Positions 1 to 12,978 of a DNA stretch of 55,678 nt are shown here, piece by piece; the first letter of the stretch is position 1, and every line of letters starts with the position of its first letter. Both the position numbers and the translations under genes were made by a program. A model generated the notes under the pieces. That model had not been told where the DNA came from and ran no database searches. It saw only the letters and a list, made by a program, of their open reading frames with translations. Where the stretch lies: NCBI GenBank assembly GCA_005223125.1, contig NJBH01000025.1, forward strand, positions 1 to 55,678. The letters are read 5' to 3'. This stretch comes from Promethearchaeota archaeon Loki_b32. Its GTDB lineage: Archaea > Asgardarchaeota > Lokiarchaeia > Sigyniarchaeales > SOKP01.

Positions 1-15
1 ACTCAATGTGGATTA

Positions 16-923
16 GTGTTAGATACTAGTTTCAAAGAATCGGTATTTATTCATAACAATGAAAACGATAAAAATAATTTAAGCAAACAATTTGTAGCTC
101 TTGGGAAATGTCAGGATTTTGTAGGTGGCTTAGGTTCTTTTATGGATTATGAAAAATCCAAATATTTGAGAGACAGAAAGGGTAGACTTCTATCACCAAA
201 TGGACAAAAATTATATAGACGGTTAAAGAAAAATTATAACCAATTTTCACGGATTAAAAATCAAGAAACCGAAGATCGAATTTTTAATATCTTAGATAAA
301 ATTGCTGGTTATCTGAATCTTAACAAAAATATACGGAATAATGCTGCGTATTATTATAGAAAAATTTTAAAAAATGAAAAGAAGATTCTCAATAATATAT
401 CTTTAATAGGTTTTTGTATTTTCTTTGCTGTAAGGGAGGAATATCACAATGCCCCAATAACTATTAATGAAATCTCTAACGCATTCCAAAATTTCGGTCA
501 TCGCATTACTCCTCTTTTAATTCTGAGGGATGGAGTAAGATATAAGCATTATCTTAATAATAATTCTATTCCACATAAAAGTGAAGATTATCTCACCAGA
601 TTAGTAGACCAACTCATCAAGCATAAAGCTTTAAATGAACGATTACAGTATAAAGGTGTGTCTTGGTCATTAACGGAATACCAAAATAATATTATTCTGA
701 AATACTGTAAAATATTAAAAAAATTATCTTCGGAGCAAAGAGGGGGAGAAATCCCTTTTTCTTAACAGGAGCTGTTATATATCTTGCTGATTGGCTCTTG
801 GCAAAAGAATTTTTTCAAAAAGCAATACTAACTCAGAAAATTATATCTAAAGCTACAGAGATTGTGGAATACTCAATTAGAGACCATTATGTGAATTTAT
901 TAAAACCTATATTTATAAAATAA
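16..923 (+). CDS. Transcription initiation factor IIB (TFB)-like cyclin-repeat protein, frameshifted at a G5 run (742-746); the 5' end may lie outside the window
   Basis: ORF 16..765 contains the first cyclin repeat (LDKIAGYLNLNKNIRNNAAYYYRK...APITINEIS). Adding one G at 742-746 continues it as GGRNPFFLTGAVIYLAD...LTQKIISKATEIVEYSIRDHY, the TFB second-repeat motif, to TAA at 921-923. Confidence 0.7.
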
Positions 924-1172
924 TATTTTTTTAAAAAATTGAGTTTTTCTAATATTACTGACAATGACATTTAAAATTATTGATAATATAATATTTTTTT
1001 CAATATTATTGACAATGGTGGTGAGTGAACTCTAATTAATAGATGGAACTTTTTTATGTGACTCTTCTTATTACATTAGTATTTTATAATTTAATGAGAA
1101 AATCATTCTACTCTTTATTGAATAATCAATACTTTTAAATATTTTATTTACATTATTTATTATGAGAAGATA

Positions 1173-2280: not shown

Positions 2281-3627
2281 TTATTTAGAATTTTCAATAC
2301 ATTTGTCTTTTTGAAATTCTTTAAGCTTTTCTATTTTGATATTTTTTTCTTCAATCTTTTTATATAAATCCTTATTTTCTTTTAATAACTCGTCAACAAT
2401 TTTCTGCTGTAATATATATTCTTGTGTCTTTTTTATATCAATTTGATTATTATCATCAAATTCTATTCTTAAACTATTTAAAAAATTTTTTAGATACTGA
2501 GGAAGACTTGAGTATCGATTCCAAGCTCTTTGAACAATTTCACTATATGAGAAATGTGTAGATGGAGTACCTTCAATACTAATAATTGGAGTTCCAGAAA
2601 CTTGAAGTACATTAATGGAATAATTTCCTCTTTTAAAAGAGATTTCTTTTATTTTTTTATTCTCTCCCTGTGCAGGTGCATGTATTAGAATAGAATGTTT
2701 TCCTGTTGATAAAAGCCATCTTTCTATTAATTCCTTTATGAATGTTTTAGTTGAGATAAATCTTGAGGCAACATATTCTACTATGGTTTGCTTCAAATTT
2801 GGATCTTTAAAAATAAAATCGCCAACATGTAAAATTCTATCTGTTTCATAACCTTTTTCAATTTTTTTTATAATTTCATGAGGATCTTTATCTGGATTCT
2901 GAGATATTCGCTCAATTGCTTTCAGAGCATCTCTACTATTCATTCCCAATACATCAACAGCTATCTCACAAATCGTATCGTGAGGAAATCCTTTAAGTTT
3001 CAATGCCATCGAATGTGTTATTTTAATTCCTAATTTTTTATGTCTTAATTTTATCATATTATCATATTTTTGCAATTTTTTCATTTCCTTTTCGCAAATA
3101 TTTCTCTCTTCTTTCATTAATGATAATACTGGTGAAGGAAGATCAAAAATATTTAAATATCGTAAAAGAACTTTCTCGTTAATAGGATTATCTTTTATAG
3201 TTCGCTTAATTGCTTCATGATGTGTCATACCAGATTCTATACAAGTATCATAAAAATTTTTATAATGTGTATAATTTTGAAAGTCAGTCCAAGGATTTAC
3301 TATACTTGCTTGTTTTGCCGCTTTTAACGCTTTAATATGATCTTTATAAACACGACAAGGAAATTTAGTTAAACCCGCTTGAAAACCTGCTTGGTATCTC
3401 TCCCAGCCATCAGATATCCAATACTTACCGTTATCATACCAAGTAATTAAAGACTTATCATGATCATATTTTTCCTTTATAGAATCAACTAATTCATCAC
3501 TAGGAATTTCTTGACGAGGATTCATTGGATCTAATTCTAAATCATTAATAGAAACATCTTTTATGATATAATCTGATGCTTCATGTTTCTTTACCATCCT
3601 TCTTTTTTTGCCTCTTTTTCTAACCAT
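2281..3627 (-). CDS. ParB/Srx N-terminal domain protein (degenerate GxRR motif)
   Basis: VSINDLELDPMNPRQ...ELVDSIKE...YWISDGWERYQA; likely start is MVKKHE, near 3597. Confidence 0.7.
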   Translation of the reverse strand: MVRKRGKKRRMVKKHEASDYIIKDVSINDLELDPMNPRQEIPSDELVDSIKEKYDHDKSLITWYDNGKYWISDGWERYQAGFQAGLTKFPCRVYKDHIKALKAAKQASIVNPWTDFQNYTHYKNFYDTCIESGMTHHEAIKRTIKDNPINEKVLLRYLNIFDLPSPVLSLMKEERNICEKEMKKLQKYDNMIKLRHKKLGIKITHSMALKLKGFPHDTICEIAVDVLGMNSRDALKAIERISQNPDKDPHEIIKKIEKGYETDRILHVGDFIFKDPNLKQTIVEYVASRFISTKTFIKELIERWLLSTGKHSILIHAPAQGENKKIKEISFKRGNYSINVLQVSGTPIISIEGTPSTHFSYSEIVQRAWNRYSSLPQYLKNFLNSLRIEFDDNNQIDIKKTQEYILQQKIVDELLKENKDLYKKIEEKNIKIEKLKEFQKDKCIENSK

Positions 3628-4604
3628 TGTATATATACTTGTCGAACTAATTGGGCGGTTTTCATATGTGCTCGACTTAAAGCGGTTCTATGCCAATAAT
3701 TATATTCAGAAGGAATTTTAAATGCAACAGAAGGAATATCACTCATTGTAGGAGTCTGAATATTATGTTCCTCTTTGACTTCTTTCATTACTATTTCAAA
3801 AGTTTTTTCTTTATCTTTAAGTTTATCTCGAATATCTCGTAAAATGATTTCCTGTTCTTTCCATGGTTTTTCTTTATCGAGAGAAAAATCTTGAATCATT
3901 TCAAAAATCTTATCAACTTTTTCTGATGGTGGGATTTCTCCAAGATGATCTGTTATTTTTTTTATAATTGAAAGTGTTTGAAAATTCATTTTAAAATCTG
4001 GTTTAATATCATATTGCTCAAGGATTAATCTTTCTGCATCAGTTCTTTCTTCTGGTTTTTTGATTAAAATTTGAAGCTCTTTTGGAAGTTTTTCTACCGT
4101 TAATATCTTATTTATATATGTAGTATTTCCTTTATAACATTTATCAGCTATCTCTTTTTTTGCATTTTTTTTTCTTTCTTCTTCTGTTCCTTCTGTATAT
4201 TTTTCATTTATTAATATCTCAAGCCAATTAAGAACTGAAATCATTTTTTGAGATTCAGTAAGATCTTTTCTTCCTATATTCTCACTAAAAGACATTGCTA
4301 TTGCATCAGGATCAGAAAGTTCTAATATCTTACATGGAACTTCACTATATCCTGCTCGAATTAAAGCATTGAATCTCCGCCATCCCGCTACAATAGCATA
4401 AGGTTTATCAGTATTTCCACCATATTTTTCACTATTTGTTGATCTGACGATTATATTATAAATTAATCCAATTCCTTTGATTGAATTTATCAATTCCTCA
4501 TCTTTTTCATCCTCTATCCATTCACCGCCTCTCGCTTGAGTAGTATCTATAGCAATATCATCAATGGAAATCATTTTTATTACATTTTTCTTTATTTCAT
4601 TCAT
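3591..4604 (-). CDS. ParB/RepB/Spo0J family protein with a C-terminal RHH-like segment
   Basis: ELINSIKGIGLIYNIIVR, AGWRRFNA and SENIGRKDL motifs; C-terminal VAFKIPSEY...TAQLVRQVYIQWL. Confidence 0.85.
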   Translation of the reverse strand: MNEIKKNVIKMISIDDIAIDTTQARGGEWIEDEKDEELINSIKGIGLIYNIIVRSTNSEKYGGNTDKPYAIVAGWRRFNALIRAGYSEVPCKILELSDPDAIAMSFSENIGRKDLTESQKMISVLNWLEILINEKYTEGTEEERKKNAKKEIADKCYKGNTTYINKILTVEKLPKELQILIKKPEERTDAERLILEQYDIKPDFKMNFQTLSIIKKITDHLGEIPPSEKVDKIFEMIQDFSLDKEKPWKEQEIILRDIRDKLKDKEKTFEIVMKEVKEEHNIQTPTMSDIPSVAFKIPSEYNYWHRTALSRAHMKTAQLVRQVYIQWLEKEAKKEGW

Positions 4605-4710
4605 TTTAAATCATTTTATATATTTAATATATTTAATATATTTTTAAATAAAAAAAAAGAGCGCTCCTAATAAAAAAGCTCTTATTAAAAGTAATTGTAT
4701 TCATAGATAT

Positions 4711-4995
4711 TTATTTATCGTTGGGTAACCAACCCATTGCAATATCTTTCCAGCTTACACCTTCAACATCAAAACTTCCTTTTCCACTTATGTCAGAATA
4801 AACGATCTCAGCAATAGTAGCATCTCCATTTTCAGGTAATCTCTCTCTAAGTCCCTTAATAGCCTCTGTTTTATCGGCATATAGATATAACTGTTCTATA
4901 TCTATTAATACCCAAAATTTTCTTACTTTTTTTGTTATTACTTTTCCTTTTTCTTCAACTTCAATTTCAGTTTCATTTACTTCCAAATAACTCAT
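4711..4995 (-). CDS. Hypothetical protein
   Basis: 94-aa ORF tightly coupled to the upstream gene, with a GGAGG SD-like motif. Confidence 0.65.
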   Translation of the reverse strand: MSYLEVNETEIEVEEKGKVITKKVRKFWVLIDIEQLYLYADKTEAIKGLRERLPENGDATIAEIVYSDISGKGSFDVEGVSWKDIAMGWLPNDK

Positions 4996-4996
4996 T

Positions 4997-5914
4997 TTAA
5001 CGACCTCCTATATTAAAGCCATCTAATTCCAATATATTTTCTTTTGTAATAAAGTATGTTTTTATGCAATCATATTTAGTAGGTAAATAATTCAGATAGA
5101 TATATTGAGCTACTTCTCTAGGTGCTTTTGGTGTTAAATCTTGCTTTGTATAACCTTTCCAATACATCGTACTCACTCGTCTTTCCATTCTTTTAGGTTC
5201 TTCTTTCTTTGTTCTCTCTATTAATTGGTGTAAATTAAGATTTCTTATTCCCCATTTACGGTAATAAACACCTAAATCTTTATTGAGTTCATGTATCCTA
5301 CTTCTAATATCTTTATTTTCTGCTTTTTCTGATATAAATGTCACTTCAAAAAGATTTGTCTTTGTTCCAGCTATTTTTTGAAGTTCATCATCTTCTATTG
5401 TAACTACTAAGAAATCAACAGGAATATCTGCATCGTACTCTATGTCTTTCTTTGTTGGATGTGGCTTCTTTGGCAATTTTTCATCTAAATAATCAATTAT
5501 TTCACCAATTTTACTGTTATCTAATGGATTTAAAACTGTTCCATCAATATCATGAACTCGTTTATAATTGATCTCTATTTCAGTACTACTTCCTGTATGA
5601 AAAGTAATGCCGTAATGTTTATCAACATCTAATTTCTCATCGGATTTTAGTCCACCTTTTCCTTTTAATATATAAATAGATTCCCTATAAAAATTTAGAA
5701 TCATTCTTAGACTTTGTGTTAAAATTGAAGGAATGAAAGCGACTATTTTTTCTTTTGTTATACTTGATTTTTTTGAATCGGTTTTTTCTTGTTCTGAATT
5801 TATTTCTCCATTTATAGTATTTTTTGCGATTTCCATTTTGTTCTTTTCTAATTCATGAATTTTTTGATCTAATTCTATTGCTTCTTTGTTTAATTTTTCT
5901 TGATTTTTACTCAT
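4997..5914 (-). CDS. Hypothetical protein (N-terminal coiled coil)
   Basis: Long ORF; ATG at 5914 (MSKNQEK) overlaps the end of the upstream RHH gene (ATGAGTAA). Confidence 0.7.
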   Translation of the reverse strand: MSKNQEKLNKEAIELDQKIHELEKNKMEIAKNTINGEINSEQEKTDSKKSSITKEKIVAFIPSILTQSLRMILNFYRESIYILKGKGGLKSDEKLDVDKHYGITFHTGSSTEIEINYKRVHDIDGTVLNPLDNSKIGEIIDYLDEKLPKKPHPTKKDIEYDADIPVDFLVVTIEDDELQKIAGTKTNLFEVTFISEKAENKDIRSRIHELNKDLGVYYRKWGIRNLNLHQLIERTKKEEPKRMERRVSTMYWKGYTKQDLTPKAPREVAQYIYLNYLPTKYDCIKTYFITKENILELDGFNIGGR

Positions 5915-6065
5915 CTTTTTTTTCACCACCTTGATTTATCCAATTTCTTATTGCTTCTTGAATTGCTTTATTTATATTGCCCCTTCTCAAACCAAAACGC
6001 TTAAAGATCTCTGTTCGGAAGCTCTCCTCTAAATCATCAGGTAAAGCAACACTTATTCTTCCCAT
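5907..6065 (-). CDS. Ribbon-helix-helix (CopG/MetJ-like) regulator, not in the ORF track
   Basis: Manual translation MGRISVALPDDLEESFRTEIFKRFGLRRGNINKAIQEAIRNWINQGGEKKDE*; first gene of the minus-strand operon. Confidence 0.8.
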   Translation of the reverse strand: MGRISVALPDDLEESFRTEIFKRFGLRRGNINKAIQEAIRNWINQGGEKKDE

Positions 6066-6147: not shown

Positions 6148-6759
6148 ATGTTTATGCAACATATTATGAATTTTGAAAGAAATTTTAAAATTGAAATGGT
6201 TAAACCATTAGTCTTTAAAATTTATTCTAAATTGTCAAAAGAAACATTTGAAGTCATAAATTATATTACCGATTGGCATTGTAAATGTCCAGAGCACATT
6301 GAAACAAGTAGTGAATGTAAGCATATTAAGCTTATAAAATCATGGTTGGGTTTTAAAAAGAATAGTAGAATAGCACAAGAGAGTAAGTTTAAGTGTGATA
6401 AATTTGAATATAATTTGGATAATAATAATTTGATTAAACCACTTCCAACTCATCCCCCTCCTGATCCAAATGAAAGTTTAGGGAAATGGATTGAAAAGAT
6501 TGGCAATACCAATCTAATTGAATTTAACATTATAATGGATTATATTATGAATTATATTGATAAAATTGGATTTGAAAAAACACTTCATCTTTTAACCAGA
6601 TGTCCAATTGACAAAATAATTGATTTAGAAAATGAATTTAAAGATGGATTCTGGAAAAATCGTAAAGAATGTCCAATTAAAGGTTGCAAGTATATTAGTC
6701 ATAATAAAACTAATATTATTTATCATTTAGCAACTCGCCATCATTTAGAAGGAAAATAA
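6148..6759 (+). CDS. SWIM zinc finger + TniQ-like module + single C2H2 finger
   Basis: WHCKCPEH...ECKHI (SWIM); PLPTHPPPDPNESLGKWIEKIGNTN (TniQ N-terminal-like); CPIKGC-x12-HLATRH. Confidence 0.7.
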   Translation: MFMQHIMNFERNFKIEMVKPLVFKIYSKLSKETFEVINYITDWHCKCPEHIETSSECKHIKLIKSWLGFKKNSRIAQESKFKCDKFEYNLDNNNLIKPLPTHPPPDPNESLGKWIEKIGNTNLIEFNIIMDYIMNYIDKIGFEKTLHLLTRCPIDKIIDLENEFKDGFWKNRKECPIKGCKYISHNKTNIIYHLATRHHLEGK

Positions 6760-6761
6760 TT

Positions 6762-7967
6762 TTAAAGTTTATATTCTTCAAATAATATTTTATGTTTATT
6801 TATTATATGTCGCTTTAAATCCGATTTTTGCTTTGACTTATAATCACATAAGGAACATTTATACCAGATTACACCAATATCATGTTTATTTGCCAAATGT
6901 CTATTAAGATTTGATTTTAATTTAGACTTATAATCACATTTGGAACATTTATACCATTTAACACCAATATTATGCTTATTGGCTAAATGTTTGGTTAAAT
7001 TACTACTTATTTTTACCTTATATTCACAATGAGGACATTGATACCACTTAACATTTATATTATGTTTATTAGCTAAATGCTTATTTAAATCGCCTTTAAT
7101 TTTAGATTTATATTCACAATTGGGACAATGATACCATTTAACGCCAATGTCGTGCTTATTGGCTAAATGTTCTGTTAATACTTTCTTATATTTGGTTTTG
7201 AAGTCACAGTAATTACATTTATACATCTTTACATTAGGATTATGAAGATAATTAATATGTTCCTTTAATTTATGCTTTTGTTTTGCCTTATATTCACAAT
7301 GTGGACATTGAAACCATTTAACATTTATATTATGTTTTAATGCTAAATGTCTTTTTAAAGAAGTAGAATGTTTTGATTTATAATCACATTTGGAACATTT
7401 ATACCATTTAACACCAATATCATGAGTAAAAGCTAAATGTTGAGTTAGATTTGTAGATAATTTTGTTTTGTAATCACAGTGAGGACATTTATACCATTTT
7501 GAGTTAATATCATGAATATTTGCTAAATGAATTGCTAACGCTTGTTTCTCTTTTGCTTTATAAACACAATGAGGACATTTTTGCCATTCTATTCCAAGAT
7601 TATGAATTAAAGAAATATGACGAAACATTCCTGAATCGGATTTACTTTCATATTTACAACTTTCAATAGGACAAAGCTTTTTGTTTTTCCAAAAGTCTTT
7701 CTTAAATTTATTTTTTATTTTTGCATTAATCTCAATAGGAGATCTTGTTAAATAGCTTAAGCATTCTAAAAATCCTGCCTTTTCAGTATAATCAATTATA
7801 TGCTTTAACATGATTCCAAAACTGATTTTATTTTCTTTAGCTAACTTTTCAATCCATTTACCAATACTTTCATTTTGTATCGGTGGTGTTAAATTATACC
7901 CTAAATATAATATAACAATGAATCCATAAGGTAATTTAATTGTCATATTTTCAAAAAAATTACTCAA
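6762..7967 (-). CDS. TniQ-like module fused to ten tandem C2H2 zinc fingers
   Basis: PPIQNESIGKWIEKLAKEN, then ten fingers at 30-aa period: nine C-x2-C-x12-H-x4-H, and a first one with C-x4-C. The start codon is uncertain. Confidence 0.85.
   Translation of the reverse strand: MSNFFENMTIKLPYGFIVILYLGYNLTPPIQNESIGKWIEKLAKENKISFGIMLKHIIDYTEKAGFLECLSYLTRSPIEINAKIKNKFKKDFWKNKKLCPIESCKYESKSDSGMFRHISLIHNLGIEWQKCPHCVYKAKEKQALAIHLANIHDINSKWYKCPHCDYKTKLSTNLTQHLAFTHDIGVKWYKCSKCDYKSKHSTSLKRHLALKHNINVKWFQCPHCEYKAKQKHKLKEHINYLHNPNVKMYKCNYCDFKTKYKKVLTEHLANKHDIGVKWYHCPNCEYKSKIKGDLNKHLANKHNINVKWYQCPHCEYKVKISSNLTKHLANKHNIGVKWYKCSKCDYKSKLKSNLNRHLANKHDIGVIWYKCSLCDYKSKQKSDLKRHIINKHKILFEEYKL
6792..7673 (-). repeat. 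90-bp coding tandem repeat (zinc-finger minisatellite, about 10 units)
   Basis: Recurring blocks such as taatcacattggaacatttataccatttaacaccaatat and gctaaatg at 90-nt period. Confidence 0.9.
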
Positions 7968-10867
7968 AAATCGATCTTACACCAGACTCAGAAACGAAAG
8001 TACAGTTAAGAAGACCTCAGATAGGTGCGATACATTCCATAGCATCATATTTCACGAGAAGTTTAGAAAGAAATGATTTGGATCCTGCAATTATCGTTTT
8101 ACCAACAGGTAGTGGAAAAACTGCAGTTTTAGTATTATCACCTTTTTTATTGAAAGTAAAAAGAGTATTGATAATCACTCAAAGCCAAATTGTCAGAAGA
8201 CAGATTTTTAGAGAATTTAGTGAATTACTATTATTAAAAAAGTTGAAAATTTTACCAGAGAACATGCCATCTCCAAGAGTATATGAATTAGATAAAATGC
8301 TTAAATCTGAGAAACAATGGCAAGAATTAATGAAGAATGACGTTATAATATCTACACCTGCTTGTATTAGTCCGCAGTATAAAAAAATTTACCAGGCACC
8401 CAAAGAAGCATTTGATTTGATTTTATACGATGAAGGTCATCATTTACCAGCTATAACTTGGTTTGGTATTTCCAATTATTTCGATAGTATGGAAATATTA
8501 TTTACTGCAACTCCATTTAGGAATGACAAAAAAAGTATTTACGGAAAAATTATATATGAATTTACTATAAGTGAAGCCTACAAAGACGAGATTTTTGGAA
8601 ACATCAATTTTATTCCTGTAGAAGTATCATCAATAGAACCCAACGATATCGATGTTGCAATTGCGAAAAAAACAGAAGAAATTTTTAAACAAGATAGGGA
8701 TGACGGATATGAACACCTAGTCCTAGTTAGGTCTTCTAAGATTGAAAAATCAAAAGAATTACTTGAAATATATAACAATAATACTGATTTATCTCTAAAA
8801 TTGATAAATAGTCAGCATTCACAAAAAACTGTCCAATCAATATTAAAAGAACTTCAAGAAGGAAAAATAGATGGTGTAATTGCTGTTGATATTATGAACG
8901 AGGGGGTTGATATCCCCAATCTCAAAATTGCTGCAATTCATTCTACATATAAATCCTTGAGCATCTTGCTGCAATTTATAGGAAGATTTGCAAGAACTGG
9001 TCATGAGAAAATTGGTGATGCGAAATTTATCGCAACTCCACAGAATGTGACTATAAATGCAATCGACTTATACCGAGAAGACAAGAAGTGGCAAGAAATA
9101 ATTCCTAAACTGTATGATAGCAAGATTCAAGGAGAGGTGAAGTTACGTGATGATATTTATTCATTTAATGCAATTGAAATTGAAGGGGTCACTCTTGATG
9201 AAACAATTACAAGACTTTCATTATTTGAGTTTAAACCGAAAAAACATGTGAAAGTTTACCAAATTGAAAATACGGTAGATTTACAGGCTAATTTAGAGCT
9301 AAAGGGATGGTCAATCGTTAAAAAGGATTTTAGCTCCGAATTGTCTTGCGTAGTATTTCTTATTAAAAGGATAGAAAAACCAAAATGGGCAACAACAAAT
9401 ATTCTTAGTAATATTGAATATCAATTAATTGTAATTGTTTATTTTGAGGCAACAAAACTTCTTTTCATTAATTCTTCCATTAAATCAGATTTCATCTATG
9501 ATTATATTGTTGAACAAATATCAATTGGAGGATATTACACATTATCTACGAACGAAATAAATAGAGCTCTAACATATCTAGAATCTCCAGAATTCTATAA
9601 TATAGGAATGAAAAGAAGAACTTTTGGAACTAGTTCAGAATCTTATCGGATGATAACTGGACCAAGAGTTGAAAATGCTATAAAGAGTAACGATGGCTAT
9701 GCGTTTGAGAGGGGTCATGTTGTTGGCAAAAGTCGTTCTATAGGAGAGAATAATACACTAGGTGTTAGTAGTTCATCTAAAATTTGGACTAGTGGTCGTG
9801 GTTTAATCCCTGAATTTGTTGATTGGTGTCATATATTTAATGATATCTTGTCAGATAATACCATTGATATTGATACAGGTACAAATTTAGATAAAATAAA
9901 AACCGGAAGTAGATTATTAGAGATACCTAATAATGTAGTTGCTGTAAATTGGAATGATGAGATCTACAAACATACTGCATTAGGAAAATATGAGATTTCT
10001 GGAGAATTAAAGGAAATCAACTTACTAGATTTCTCACTTGAAGTAATTGATCAAGATGATGATGATGACAGTATTCAATTTGAAATCAATAATAACGAAA
10101 TAGAATGGAAATGCTATTTTCGTTTACAATCGCCATTATTTATTCAAGATAATTCAAACCCAAGAATTTTAATTGAATTCAATGAACAAGAATGTGAATT
10201 GTTAGAGTTTATTAAATCTTATCCAGTACAGTTCTATACTAGAGATTTATCAATTATAACTGGAAATAATATTAGTAAAATGCCCTCAATTAATGAGAGT
10301 TATGACACTAGAAATATTGATACAATGGATTGGGATAATAATAATGTCGATATTACTTCAGAAGAGATTGGATCTTCAGAAGATGGATTATCTATCCAAG
10401 AATTTTTACTTAACTATTATCATGGATCCTCAGAAATTGTATTCTTTGATCATCGTAAAGGAGAAATTGCTGATATACTCCTTTTTAATATGAATCAAAG
10501 AAATGAACTTTTAATTGACTTCATTCATATCAAAAGTTCTTCTCAATCTAATCCTGGTCAAAGAATGAAGGATGTTGATGAATTAATCGGTCAAATATTA
10601 AGATCAATTAAATGGACACAAATTGAAGACCTAATTTCAAGAATTGAATACAGAATGGAGGGTAGTAGTTATTTTTATCACGGAACTTTTGATGAATTAA
10701 AAGAATTAAAAGAAAATTATGATAGCGTTACATTTCGAATTATAGGAGTACAACCAGGTCTTTCAAAAAATAGATTGAACGATCGCGTTTTAATTCCATT
10801 TCAAGCTTTATCAGTTTTTGTATCTTCATTTAATATCGAATCAGTTAAATTACTTATTTCTGAATGA
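7940..10867 (+). CDS. SF2 DEAD/DEAH (restriction-subunit-like) helicase fused to a C-terminal PD-(D/E)xK-like nuclease; putative defence protein
   Basis: LPTGSGKT, DEGHH, TATPFR, EGVDIP and QFIGRFAR; C-terminal DHRKGEIADI...FIHIKSS. Confidence 0.8.
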   Translation: MSYFQKNYSKIDLTPDSETKVQLRRPQIGAIHSIASYFTRSLERNDLDPAIIVLPTGSGKTAVLVLSPFLLKVKRVLIITQSQIVRRQIFREFSELLLLKKLKILPENMPSPRVYELDKMLKSEKQWQELMKNDVIISTPACISPQYKKIYQAPKEAFDLILYDEGHHLPAITWFGISNYFDSMEILFTATPFRNDKKSIYGKIIYEFTISEAYKDEIFGNINFIPVEVSSIEPNDIDVAIAKKTEEIFKQDRDDGYEHLVLVRSSKIEKSKELLEIYNNNTDLSLKLINSQHSQKTVQSILKELQEGKIDGVIAVDIMNEGVDIPNLKIAAIHSTYKSLSILLQFIGRFARTGHEKIGDAKFIATPQNVTINAIDLYREDKKWQEIIPKLYDSKIQGEVKLRDDIYSFNAIEIEGVTLDETITRLSLFEFKPKKHVKVYQIENTVDLQANLELKGWSIVKKDFSSELSCVVFLIKRIEKPKWATTNILSNIEYQLIVIVYFEATKLLFINSSIKSDFIYDYIVEQISIGGYYTLSTNEINRALTYLESPEFYNIGMKRRTFGTSSESYRMITGPRVENAIKSNDGYAFERGHVVGKSRSIGENNTLGVSSSSKIWTSGRGLIPEFVDWCHIFNDILSDNTIDIDTGTNLDKIKTGSRLLEIPNNVVAVNWNDEIYKHTALGKYEISGELKEINLLDFSLEVIDQDDDDDSIQFEINNNEIEWKCYFRLQSPLFIQDNSNPRILIEFNEQECELLEFIKSYPVQFYTRDLSIITGNNISKMPSINESYDTRNIDTMDWDNNNVDITSEEIGSSEDGLSIQEFLLNYYHGSSEIVFFDHRKGEIADILLFNMNQRNELLIDFIHIKSSSQSNPGQRMKDVDELIGQILRSIKWTQIEDLISRIEYRMEGSSYFYHGTFDELKELKENYDSVTFRIIGVQPGLSKNRLNDRVLIPFQALSVFVSSFNIESVKLLISE

Positions 10868-11074
10868 CGGAGATAAAGGTAAAGGCTCCGTTCCGCTGAA
10901 ATGTCACAACCAAATGTGAGAATGTTATTAATTAAGATGAATATTGTTCCTACAATTGATATTCGCAAAAAATATGTCTTGATGGATCCGCATATAAAGC
11001 TTCCGCCCTCTAAATTATAAATTCTTCGTCTAAAGGATTGTTGCGCTTAAATTCTTCGTACTCTGTATTTCTGG

Positions 11075-11386
11075 CTATTCTTTTGTTGCTTTATTTATGA
11101 TGTGTTCGATTTCCACTTCAAATCCTACCACCTTGTAGGGGTTATGTCCCTTTTTAAACGTGCCTTCTTTCCAATTCCACCAATTCTTTTCAAGCCTATG
11201 AGAGCCTAAATTCCAAACTTCAAGGTCTTCAATACCTTCTAATATCTGAAATACCCGATACCCTCTCGCGCCTTGCTGCAAAATAGCCAAGAACTTTTTA
11301 AGAATTTTTACGCCTTCTGAATATTCCTCCACGCTCATAAGGTTATTCGATGCTTCCGTTGATTTAAGATTTATCGTTACAACCAC
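11075..11386 (-). CDS. Hypothetical protein
   Basis: 103-aa ORF in a block that is more GC-rich than its surroundings. Confidence 0.45.
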   Translation of the reverse strand: MVVTINLKSTEASNNLMSVEEYSEGVKILKKFLAILQQGARGYRVFQILEGIEDLEVWNLGSHRLEKNWWNWKEGTFKKGHNPYKVVGFEVEIEHIINKATKE

Positions 11387-11700
11387 GAGTCTAAGATCTG
11401 GTTCTTTACAGGGTGCTTCATTCTTCGCTTTGGTTTTCTGGGGAAATATCGCTTTTGAGTGGTTTCGGGAAGGAACGGGTGTTGAACCAGAGAATACAAC
11501 ACATAACGCTCTAAGGTTTCAATAGATGCCAATACGTGTCCGAAATGAGAGAGAATCTTTCCGCTCGTAGGTCTAAACTCCGAATTTGGGTGCATCGGCG
11601 CAGATATTAATATCAAGGGAATTTGTTGCTTCAAGCACTCCTTTAGTCCGCTAATGGCGTGCAGAAGCACCCTAAACGTTTTTTGCTCGTAATTGGGAGT
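11377..11700 (-). pseudogene. C-terminal fragment resembling an inactivated RadA/RecA-like protein
   Basis: RPTSGKILSHFGHVL...YSLVQHPFLP resembles the RecA-fold C-terminus (GG-x2-L-x-H...L-x2-HP); an in-frame stop lies at 11701 and there is no Walker A. Confidence 0.35.
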
Positions 11701-11754
11701 TTATATGTTTTCGTCGATGAAGGTAGATTAAAAATTATCTATCAGGAGGGACGA

Positions 11755-12978
11755 AAAAAGATTGCGAAATTTATGGAACCCTTTGATTTCAAGGAAGATG
11801 AGAACAAATTCCGAATAAATGGTTTATTAGGGCATCCTCAAATCGCTAAAAAAAACAGAACTTATTCAAGTCTATTTATTAATCAACGCTATATTATTAG
11901 TGATGTCTTATTTAGAGCTATAAGTGAAGCTTATGAAGGAACTTTAATGGTGAGTAAATACCCTTTCTTTATTATATTTCTTGAGCTTGATCCCTCTGTT
12001 ATTGATTTCAACGTTCATCCAAAGAAACTTCATGTTAGATTCGAAAAAGTGGATTCAATTTATAATAAAGTTTATAATGTTATCAAAGGTTTTGTGGAAG
12101 ATAAATTTATTATAAAAGAGGCAAAATATATATCCGCTGAATTACATGATTTTATACCTAAAGAAGAGAAAAAATTTGCCGAAATTACAGAAACTATAAC
12201 AGAAATTCGAGAAAAAGAAGTTAAAGATATCAACTCAACGCAAGAACTGCCAATATTACCTGAAGAAAGTGTACAATTAAACTTAGATGATCAAGTAATT
12301 AGAGATAAATCAAATAAAAAATTACCTCCTGAGGCATTTTTACGGGGTAAGTATATTATTTCAGAAAATTTTCCAAAGCTCCGTTTAATCTCTCATACAG
12401 GTCAATTAAATAATAAAATTTATGTAGTTTTAGAGGGTATTAACGAAAATAATGAAGAGGGCTTATTTATTTTAGATCAACATGCAGCATCAGAACGGAT
12501 AAGTAAAGAAAAATTCTTGGATGCGTTTGAAACATCAAAAATGAGTAAGCAAAAATTAATATCTGCCTTAAAAATTGAAGTATCTCCAAGTGAAAGGATA
12601 TTTTTAGATTCTAACTTACGTGAAATCCAAAAGTTGGGATTTAGTTTTGAATACTTTGGAGGAAATACATTTATTTTGAGAGAAATTCCTACAATCATGG
12701 GAAAACTTCCAAATATAAATATCATAAAAGAAATAATTAGTGATATTTCTAAAATTGGCAAGGATAAAAGTTTTTCAGATATGAAGGAAGAAATTATTAA
12801 CTATTTATCATGTCATAAAAGTATTAGAGGAGGGGATGATCTCTCCTTAAAAGATATTAGAGGATTATTGACTGAATTAGCGGAATGTAAAGATTCATAC
12901 CATTGCGCTCATGGAAGACCTACTTTAAGATTTTTCTCTTATAGAGAATTAGATAAACTATTTAAAAGAATAGTATAA
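11755..12978 (+). pseudogene. mutL: mutL, 5'-truncated (GHKL ATPase domain missing)
   Basis: Transducer motif IDFNVHPKK; endonuclease motifs DQHAASERISKE, SCHKSIR and CAHGRP. Homology begins only at KKIAKFM (about 11755). Confidence 0.85.

Follow-up and report, generated by a model that had tools for sequence, protein, structure and literature searches.

The zinc-finger reading frame described here probably encodes a TnsD-like target selector from a Tn7-like transposon of Lokiarchaeia, in a copy that is orphaned and damaged at its N-terminus; its fingers would read one fixed site. It lies in the window, the whole 55,678-nucleotide stretch of DNA that was analysed, which is contig C38 of a 4.13-Mb assembly that is 95.5% complete. 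In intact elements of the family, ordered tnsAB-tnsC-selector, the fingers would read one fixed chromosomal site of ~30 bp at one triplet each, and a TniQ-like module in front of them may recruit the TnsC ATPase, which would bring TnsAB; gene order, a weak likeness of fold and a weak complex score point to this recruitment step. Reading one triplet per finger would lead to contacts that differ between fingers yet are conserved between orthologues. The features on which the argument is built are collected in Table 1.

Table 1 Selector gene, its neighbours and the candidate target site in the window.
Feature	Position	Strand	Remarks
TFIIB-like gene, second copy	1..923	+	Frameshifted (break near 740); 3' end is the putative attachment site; intact copy on contig C61
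Predicted binding register, F10 to F2	864..890	+	Codons x-E-Y-S-I-R-D-H-Y
Two 16-bp direct repeats	951..1017	+	951-966 and 1002-1017; candidate transposon-end remnant
RHH and two ParB-like genes	2281..6065	-	Between TFIIB-like copy and selector genes; probable cargo
Convergent paralogue	6148..6759	+	N-terminal part SWIM-like (by eye); second TniQ-like module at about 6436-6750; single finger
Whole reading frame of the array gene	6762..7967	-	401 aa counted from TTG, with the first ATG at 7946; tnsC absent upstream
C2H2 array, ten fingers	6792..7673	-	F1 at 7673, F10 ends 6792
Compact TniQ-like helical module	7674..7888	-	About 70-80 aa; homology to orthologues starts near 7888

The window protein has the tandem C-x2-4-C-x12-H-x3-5-H pattern that marks C2H2 arrays, in the form C-x2/4-C-x12-H-x4-H in each of its ten fingers, and F2-F10 repeat at an exact spacing of 90 bp. 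Across F2-F10 all cysteine and histidine ligands as well as K-4, K-2 and L+4 are invariant, while variability is concentrated at columns -1, +2, +3 and +6, where mean entropy is 2.38 bits vs 1.02 bits in the other columns. Out of 14,950 possible sets of four columns, this one is the most variable. Reading these columns as the DNA-contact positions of a sequence-specific array is supported, and paralogous fingers have just 11% of their contact residues in common. The linkers have eight residues of the form xIxVxWxx, and the TGEKP linker of Krueppel-type arrays is absent from the array. Much of the first-pass annotation stands on these points: its ten fingers in 90-bp units, its list of contact residues from SSGR to QSDR (an exact match when the reading frame was re-read), its nearly fixed framework with varying helix positions, and its H-x4-H spacing with a linker other than TGEKP. 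Its label of a minisatellite overstates the likeness of the units, whose mean nucleotide identity is 65% and reaches 77% in the best pair.

The module was modelled with high confidence (pLDDT 96) as four short helices that lead directly into the first finger. Unlike the TniQ core of Hel1, zinc ribbon and Hel2 (PMC10293859), it has neither zinc ribbon nor Hel2, and the window protein has no Pfam TniQ (PF06527) match at the curated cut-off; for these reasons we call the module TniQ-like instead of filing it as TniQ. Among 52 family members, 20 match Pfam TniQ weakly, at E values up to 1 and 1e-6 at best, and a profile search with the module found about 60 relatives among 1.8 billion representatives. 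In a structure search over 48,161 PDB representatives the five best matches were Tn7/CAST complexes at Z scores of 5.2 to 3.4, below the tool's reliable level; the top match had a Z of 5.2 and an rmsd of 2.2 over 63 aligned residues, and the matched chains in these five complexes are of TniQ/TnsD size. Foldseek gave E values of 0.56 or worse, a PDB sequence search found no TniQ, a word-seeded search for homologues of just the N-terminal region had no matches, and the ESM Atlas returned only generic C2H2 clusters. Prediction of a complex between TnsC and the module of L016, one of the related loci (numbered here with L), gave a weak score of 0.52 vs 0.01 for the best control, in a range where passing scores are more often wrong than right unless the pair is likely beforehand: the mark for this score is reached by 58 of 80 solved pairs and 2 of 110 mismatched pairs, and passing scores of 0.60 or less come from only 7 of the 80 solved pairs but from both mismatches. 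Runs share at least 89% of contacts, with a partner pLDDT of at least 87, and the score may reflect the TniQ-TnsC complexes that have already been solved. In L037:7041-7592, from a more distantly related Asgard genome, the same module precedes TGEKP fingers of Krueppel type, so that the module has captured fingers of two types.

In nine related loci the selector gene lies directly behind the gene for the TniB/TnsC ATPase (tnsC), as the gene that follows tnsC in a tnsAB-tnsC operon, which suggests that the selector works like TnsD, the Tn7 target selector. Upstream of tnsC, TnsA-N and rve/integrase domains were confirmed in several loci, where tested. Elements carry up to three selectors, the number of fingers across the family ranges from 0 to 15, and the codes of different members are unrelated. 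Duplicated units in L026 and L022 are 92-98% identical; retargeting by finger duplication occurs between elements, and new specificities would arise through such duplication followed by divergence. The finger blocks of L026:764-1906, duplicated at 97-98% DNA identity, are the true minisatellite-like case of the family. In L022:4791-9838 a tandem behind tnsC comprises three module-plus-array genes (15, 12 and 8 fingers) and one degenerate finger-only reading frame, with a tyrosine recombinase further downstream. ParB genes also accompany the family in L012, L016, L019 and L023. Two orthologues of the window protein, at 60-62% identity, lie in L016 and L017; they are 11-finger selectors from sediment metagenomes with which F1-F10 of the window align finger for finger.

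Which site would such an array read? For the group formed by L016, L017 and the window the likeliest site is the final run of conserved codons in a TFIIB-like gene; F1 and the module would then face an insertion point about 45 bp further on, at the stop codon. The element in L017 (7569-17677, with an internally deleted tnsAB) is bounded by an 11-bp inverted repeat and by a TTTTT target duplication on both sides, at the stop codon of the TFIIB-like gene; its ends are TAG, not TGT, a tRNA gene lies on its other side, and it is the only one of the orthologous elements with both flanks. In 30 of 30 relatives the TFIIB-like gene is followed by the tRNA without an insertion, as an empty site. The window island begins directly after its TFIIB-like copy, and its selector has the same orientation as in L017. 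The direct repeats of Table 1 lie just past the position that matches the start of the L017 element, and no inverted partner for them was found nearby. Further TFIIB-like copies occur on other islands in relatives (L068-L071; G181:C69, G206:C7), four of them in one genome, so that the TFIIB-like gene itself travels on mobile DNA.

The published finger code applied here is that of PMC12264921. F10-F7 (QSDR, QSNR, SxNK, SGDx) predict GCA GAA (G/T)An nCn, and the conserved codons of the TFIIB-like gene are GCN GAR TAY TCN. With the published code, the TFIIB-like site comes out as the top register in 600 bp, over 30 genomes, for all three orthologues, in a test that was not blind because the match was first noticed by eye. 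Finger-order shuffles reach this site 17, 2 and 0 times in 600 with the published code, and 3-7 times in 1000 with a wider one. Scanning the genome with the predicted motif, as the first-pass annotation had proposed, did not put the site first: among 8.3 million positions it came 14th-99th with the wider code and 527th-4773rd with the published one. F3, F4 and F6 fit the predicted site poorly, and adding E/Q at +6 to the wider code lowered its rank. In this register the fingers lie antiparallel to the site, the expected orientation, and thereby turn F1 and the module towards the insertion point, which is 73 bp away from the 5' edge of the site. Another element, in L009:317-8784, has inserted into a dam methylase gene, with a TGT end at 861, and brings along an intact replacement methylase that is 71-74% identical, a parallel to the published Clade VIII methylase case with a different class of methylase. 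For this dam-inserted element the best register over 29 dam genes is at the DPPY codons in the expected orientation; as good a register was reached by 93 of 1000 shuffles (p about 0.09), and it was not counted. When the loci of other elements were scanned with the code of their own fingers, no clear sites emerged.

The selector might have this same role at another target: its fingers could read the tRNA gene next door, which contains an intron, or some other site, as in published Clade VII TniQ-C2H2 elements. In Tn7 the target site is at the tnsA end, where its selectors usually bind, and in L017 about 140 bp separate the tnsAB end from the tRNA gene; the predicted TFIIB-like site is at the cargo end. 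The 3' end of the tRNA in L017 also gives a partial code match of 11-12 bits, and tRNA targeting has been proposed by Thesier et al. (bioRxiv 10.1101/2025.07.27.667033). However, this partial match is oriented away from the insertion and extends into DNA that is not conserved, the window island, which follows the TFIIB-like copy, has no tRNA gene nearby, and the TFIIB register beats the tRNA across the 30 genomes, which makes the tRNA an unlikely target. This tRNA is missed by Rfam and by ARAGORN run without introns, and the intron option found it in two empty-site loci with differing isotype calls. Aloposons were considered and dropped, as the Aloposon paper mentions neither TniQ nor zinc fingers.

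Returning to the window copy as an orphaned selector, tblastn and profile searches found neither tnsAB nor tnsC in the 95.5% complete assembly, where the sole match of the TniB profile over its cut-off is Cdc6. A helicase gene occupies the expected place of tnsC, the near-invariant N-terminal H-P motif of the family is replaced by unrelated sequence, and F11 is missing, lost at the junction with the inverted paralogue. The module of this paralogue is 45% identical to that of the array gene, 78% to the L019 copy and 68% to the L023 copy. In L019 a short tandem repeat of about 22 bp (2690-2800) lies upstream of an orphan module gene, with a three-finger remnant facing this gene in a layout that resembles the one in the window. 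The helicase gene (7940-10867) overlaps the 5' end of the array frame head to head and encodes a 975-aa SF2 (ResIII/DEAD) protein with a long C-terminal part and weak matches to restriction/defence helicases. Beyond it, a patch of higher GC (10870-12978) joins a RadA-like C-terminal fragment to a 5'-truncated second mutL, with intact copies on contigs C24 and C6; these fragments indicate a rearranged island. The 41 bp at 11700-11740 show 85% likeness to an intergenic site of contig C58. Contamination with a eukaryotic contig was dropped as an explanation, as the contig has Asgard-type genes and the orthologues lie in Lokiarchaeia DNA.

Because the frame of the array gene is open and all 40 of its zinc ligands are kept, loss of function in the window copy appears to be recent or incomplete. 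The same integrity in a genome that has lost the transposase genes, together with the recurrence of orphan modules beside RHH-ParB genes (L019, L023), could mean that the copy now serves the host or the island as a domesticated, free-standing regulator of transcription. We consider this quite improbable: apart from one remnant broken by a stop, the gene is absent from the 53 other genomes of the genus that were searched, and the copy is truncated at both ends with gene fragments all around.

If the fingers read one fixed site, how do they evolve? Contact residues of the window array are identical to those of the two orthologues at 25 of 36 and 26 of 36 positions, vs 56-60% identity in the rest of the unit, and finger-order shuffles match this conservation once in 200,000. 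At the contact codons dN is about 0.2 vs a dS of 1.5 or more, within ranges of 0.07-0.22 for dN and 0.65 to saturated for dS, in a rough Nei-Gojobori comparison with dS near saturation. Since dN is far below dS between orthologues, the contact codons are under purifying, not diversifying, selection, and variation that separates the fingers but is long fixed within each is as expected for a reader of one non-repetitive site. Twenty read runs contain small shares (at most 0.25). The first-pass annotation had envisaged a recombining, retargetable array under diversifying selection. Diversifying selection fails here, since dN/dS at the contact codons does not exceed 1, and active recombination is at odds with the dissimilar units and with a finger order kept in both orthologues; retargetability describes the family, with its unrelated codes and recent duplications, but not the window array. 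An actively recombining PRDM9-like array, which would fit the variability at contact positions and the recent duplications elsewhere in the family, is thus largely refuted and very improbable for the window, as its units are not near-identical and homogenised, its order and contacts are conserved, and any multi-finger protein on a non-repetitive site is expected to vary in this way within the array.

The first-pass annotation considered the array relevant to the origin of eukaryotic C2H2 arrays; outside the family, the closest finger type found is on giant-virus-like contigs, not in animals. Since 30-aa units are too short for phylogeny, finger types were compared by linker counts: strict xIGVxWxx linkers make up 72 of 96 in giant-virus-like proteins, 54 of 97 in the TniQ-like family and 0 of 48 in animal-like matches. 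The giant-virus-like proteins (P0072-P0093) have the same 30-aa finger and linker, with the array at the N-terminus, no TniQ module and, at the C-terminus, a putative endonuclease domain that resembles Nucleocytoviricota clusters; a motif and one cluster name suggest that it may be a nuclease. Their contigs are gene-dense, with genes for RNA polymerase, PolB and ribonucleotide reductase. L024:8001-9551 and L107:4392-5570 combine this finger type with the putative endonuclease domain and may be natural zinc-finger nucleases; the L024 gene follows a split RNA polymerase subunit gene.

We tentatively propose, with slightly less than even credence, that a widespread Asgard family of Tn7-like transposons owes its natural programming to C2H2 arrays that obey the standard code at one finger per host codon, that its landing site is changed by duplication and swapping of fingers from a pool shared with giant-virus proteins, and that replacement of fingers would redirect integration. 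For a prokaryotic C2H2 array there is now a definite task, and its target has a name and can be tested. Should the finger-to-codon map prove right, the system would be a natural zinc-finger-guided integrase with a very small adaptor and an obvious scaffold for retargetable DNA insertion. The finger type held in common with giant-virus proteins marks a possible route for arrays between Asgard mobile elements and eukaryotic viruses, in either direction, and surveys with TniQ profiles miss a whole branch of Asgard Tn7 elements.

Like TnsD of E. coli Tn7 at attTn7 (glmS), the selector described here would be a protein that guides its element to the conserved 3' end of a host coding sequence, for insertion just past it; Tn7 inserts just beyond the 3' coding end of glmS. 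Unlike TnsD, which has HTH domains, the selector here has a C2H2 array, and its predicted site is at the other, cargo end. The array resembles PRDM9 and KRAB-ZNF proteins in its tandem C2H2 fingers that vary at -1/2/3/6, and differs from them in having no SET, KRAB or TGEKP, in units that are not homogenised and in contacts under purifying selection.

Archaeal TniQ-C2H2 fusions are already published, and the kind is therefore known: Thesier et al. found C2H2 arrays in five archaeal TniQs with PF06527 (for example MBD3216128.1; Clades VII-X), in proteins of 479-729 aa where listed. The present elements share with theirs the Asgard hosts, the tnsAB-tnsC-tniQ order, a tandem C2H2 DNA-binding part and gene targeting with a replacement methylase copy (here L009). 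They differ in a module of about 80 aa that is mostly below the Pfam cut-off, in fingers with an 8-residue xIGVxWxx linker and H-x4-H where the published ones are TGERP-like, and in having up to three selectors per element. Two named assemblies with the compact-module family are not in Table S2 of that study (bioRxiv 2025.07.27.667033), which did not map fingers to target bases. New relative to it are the compact module, the finger type, the multiple selectors, the range of 0-15 fingers, the recent duplications and the finger-to-codon map of the target.
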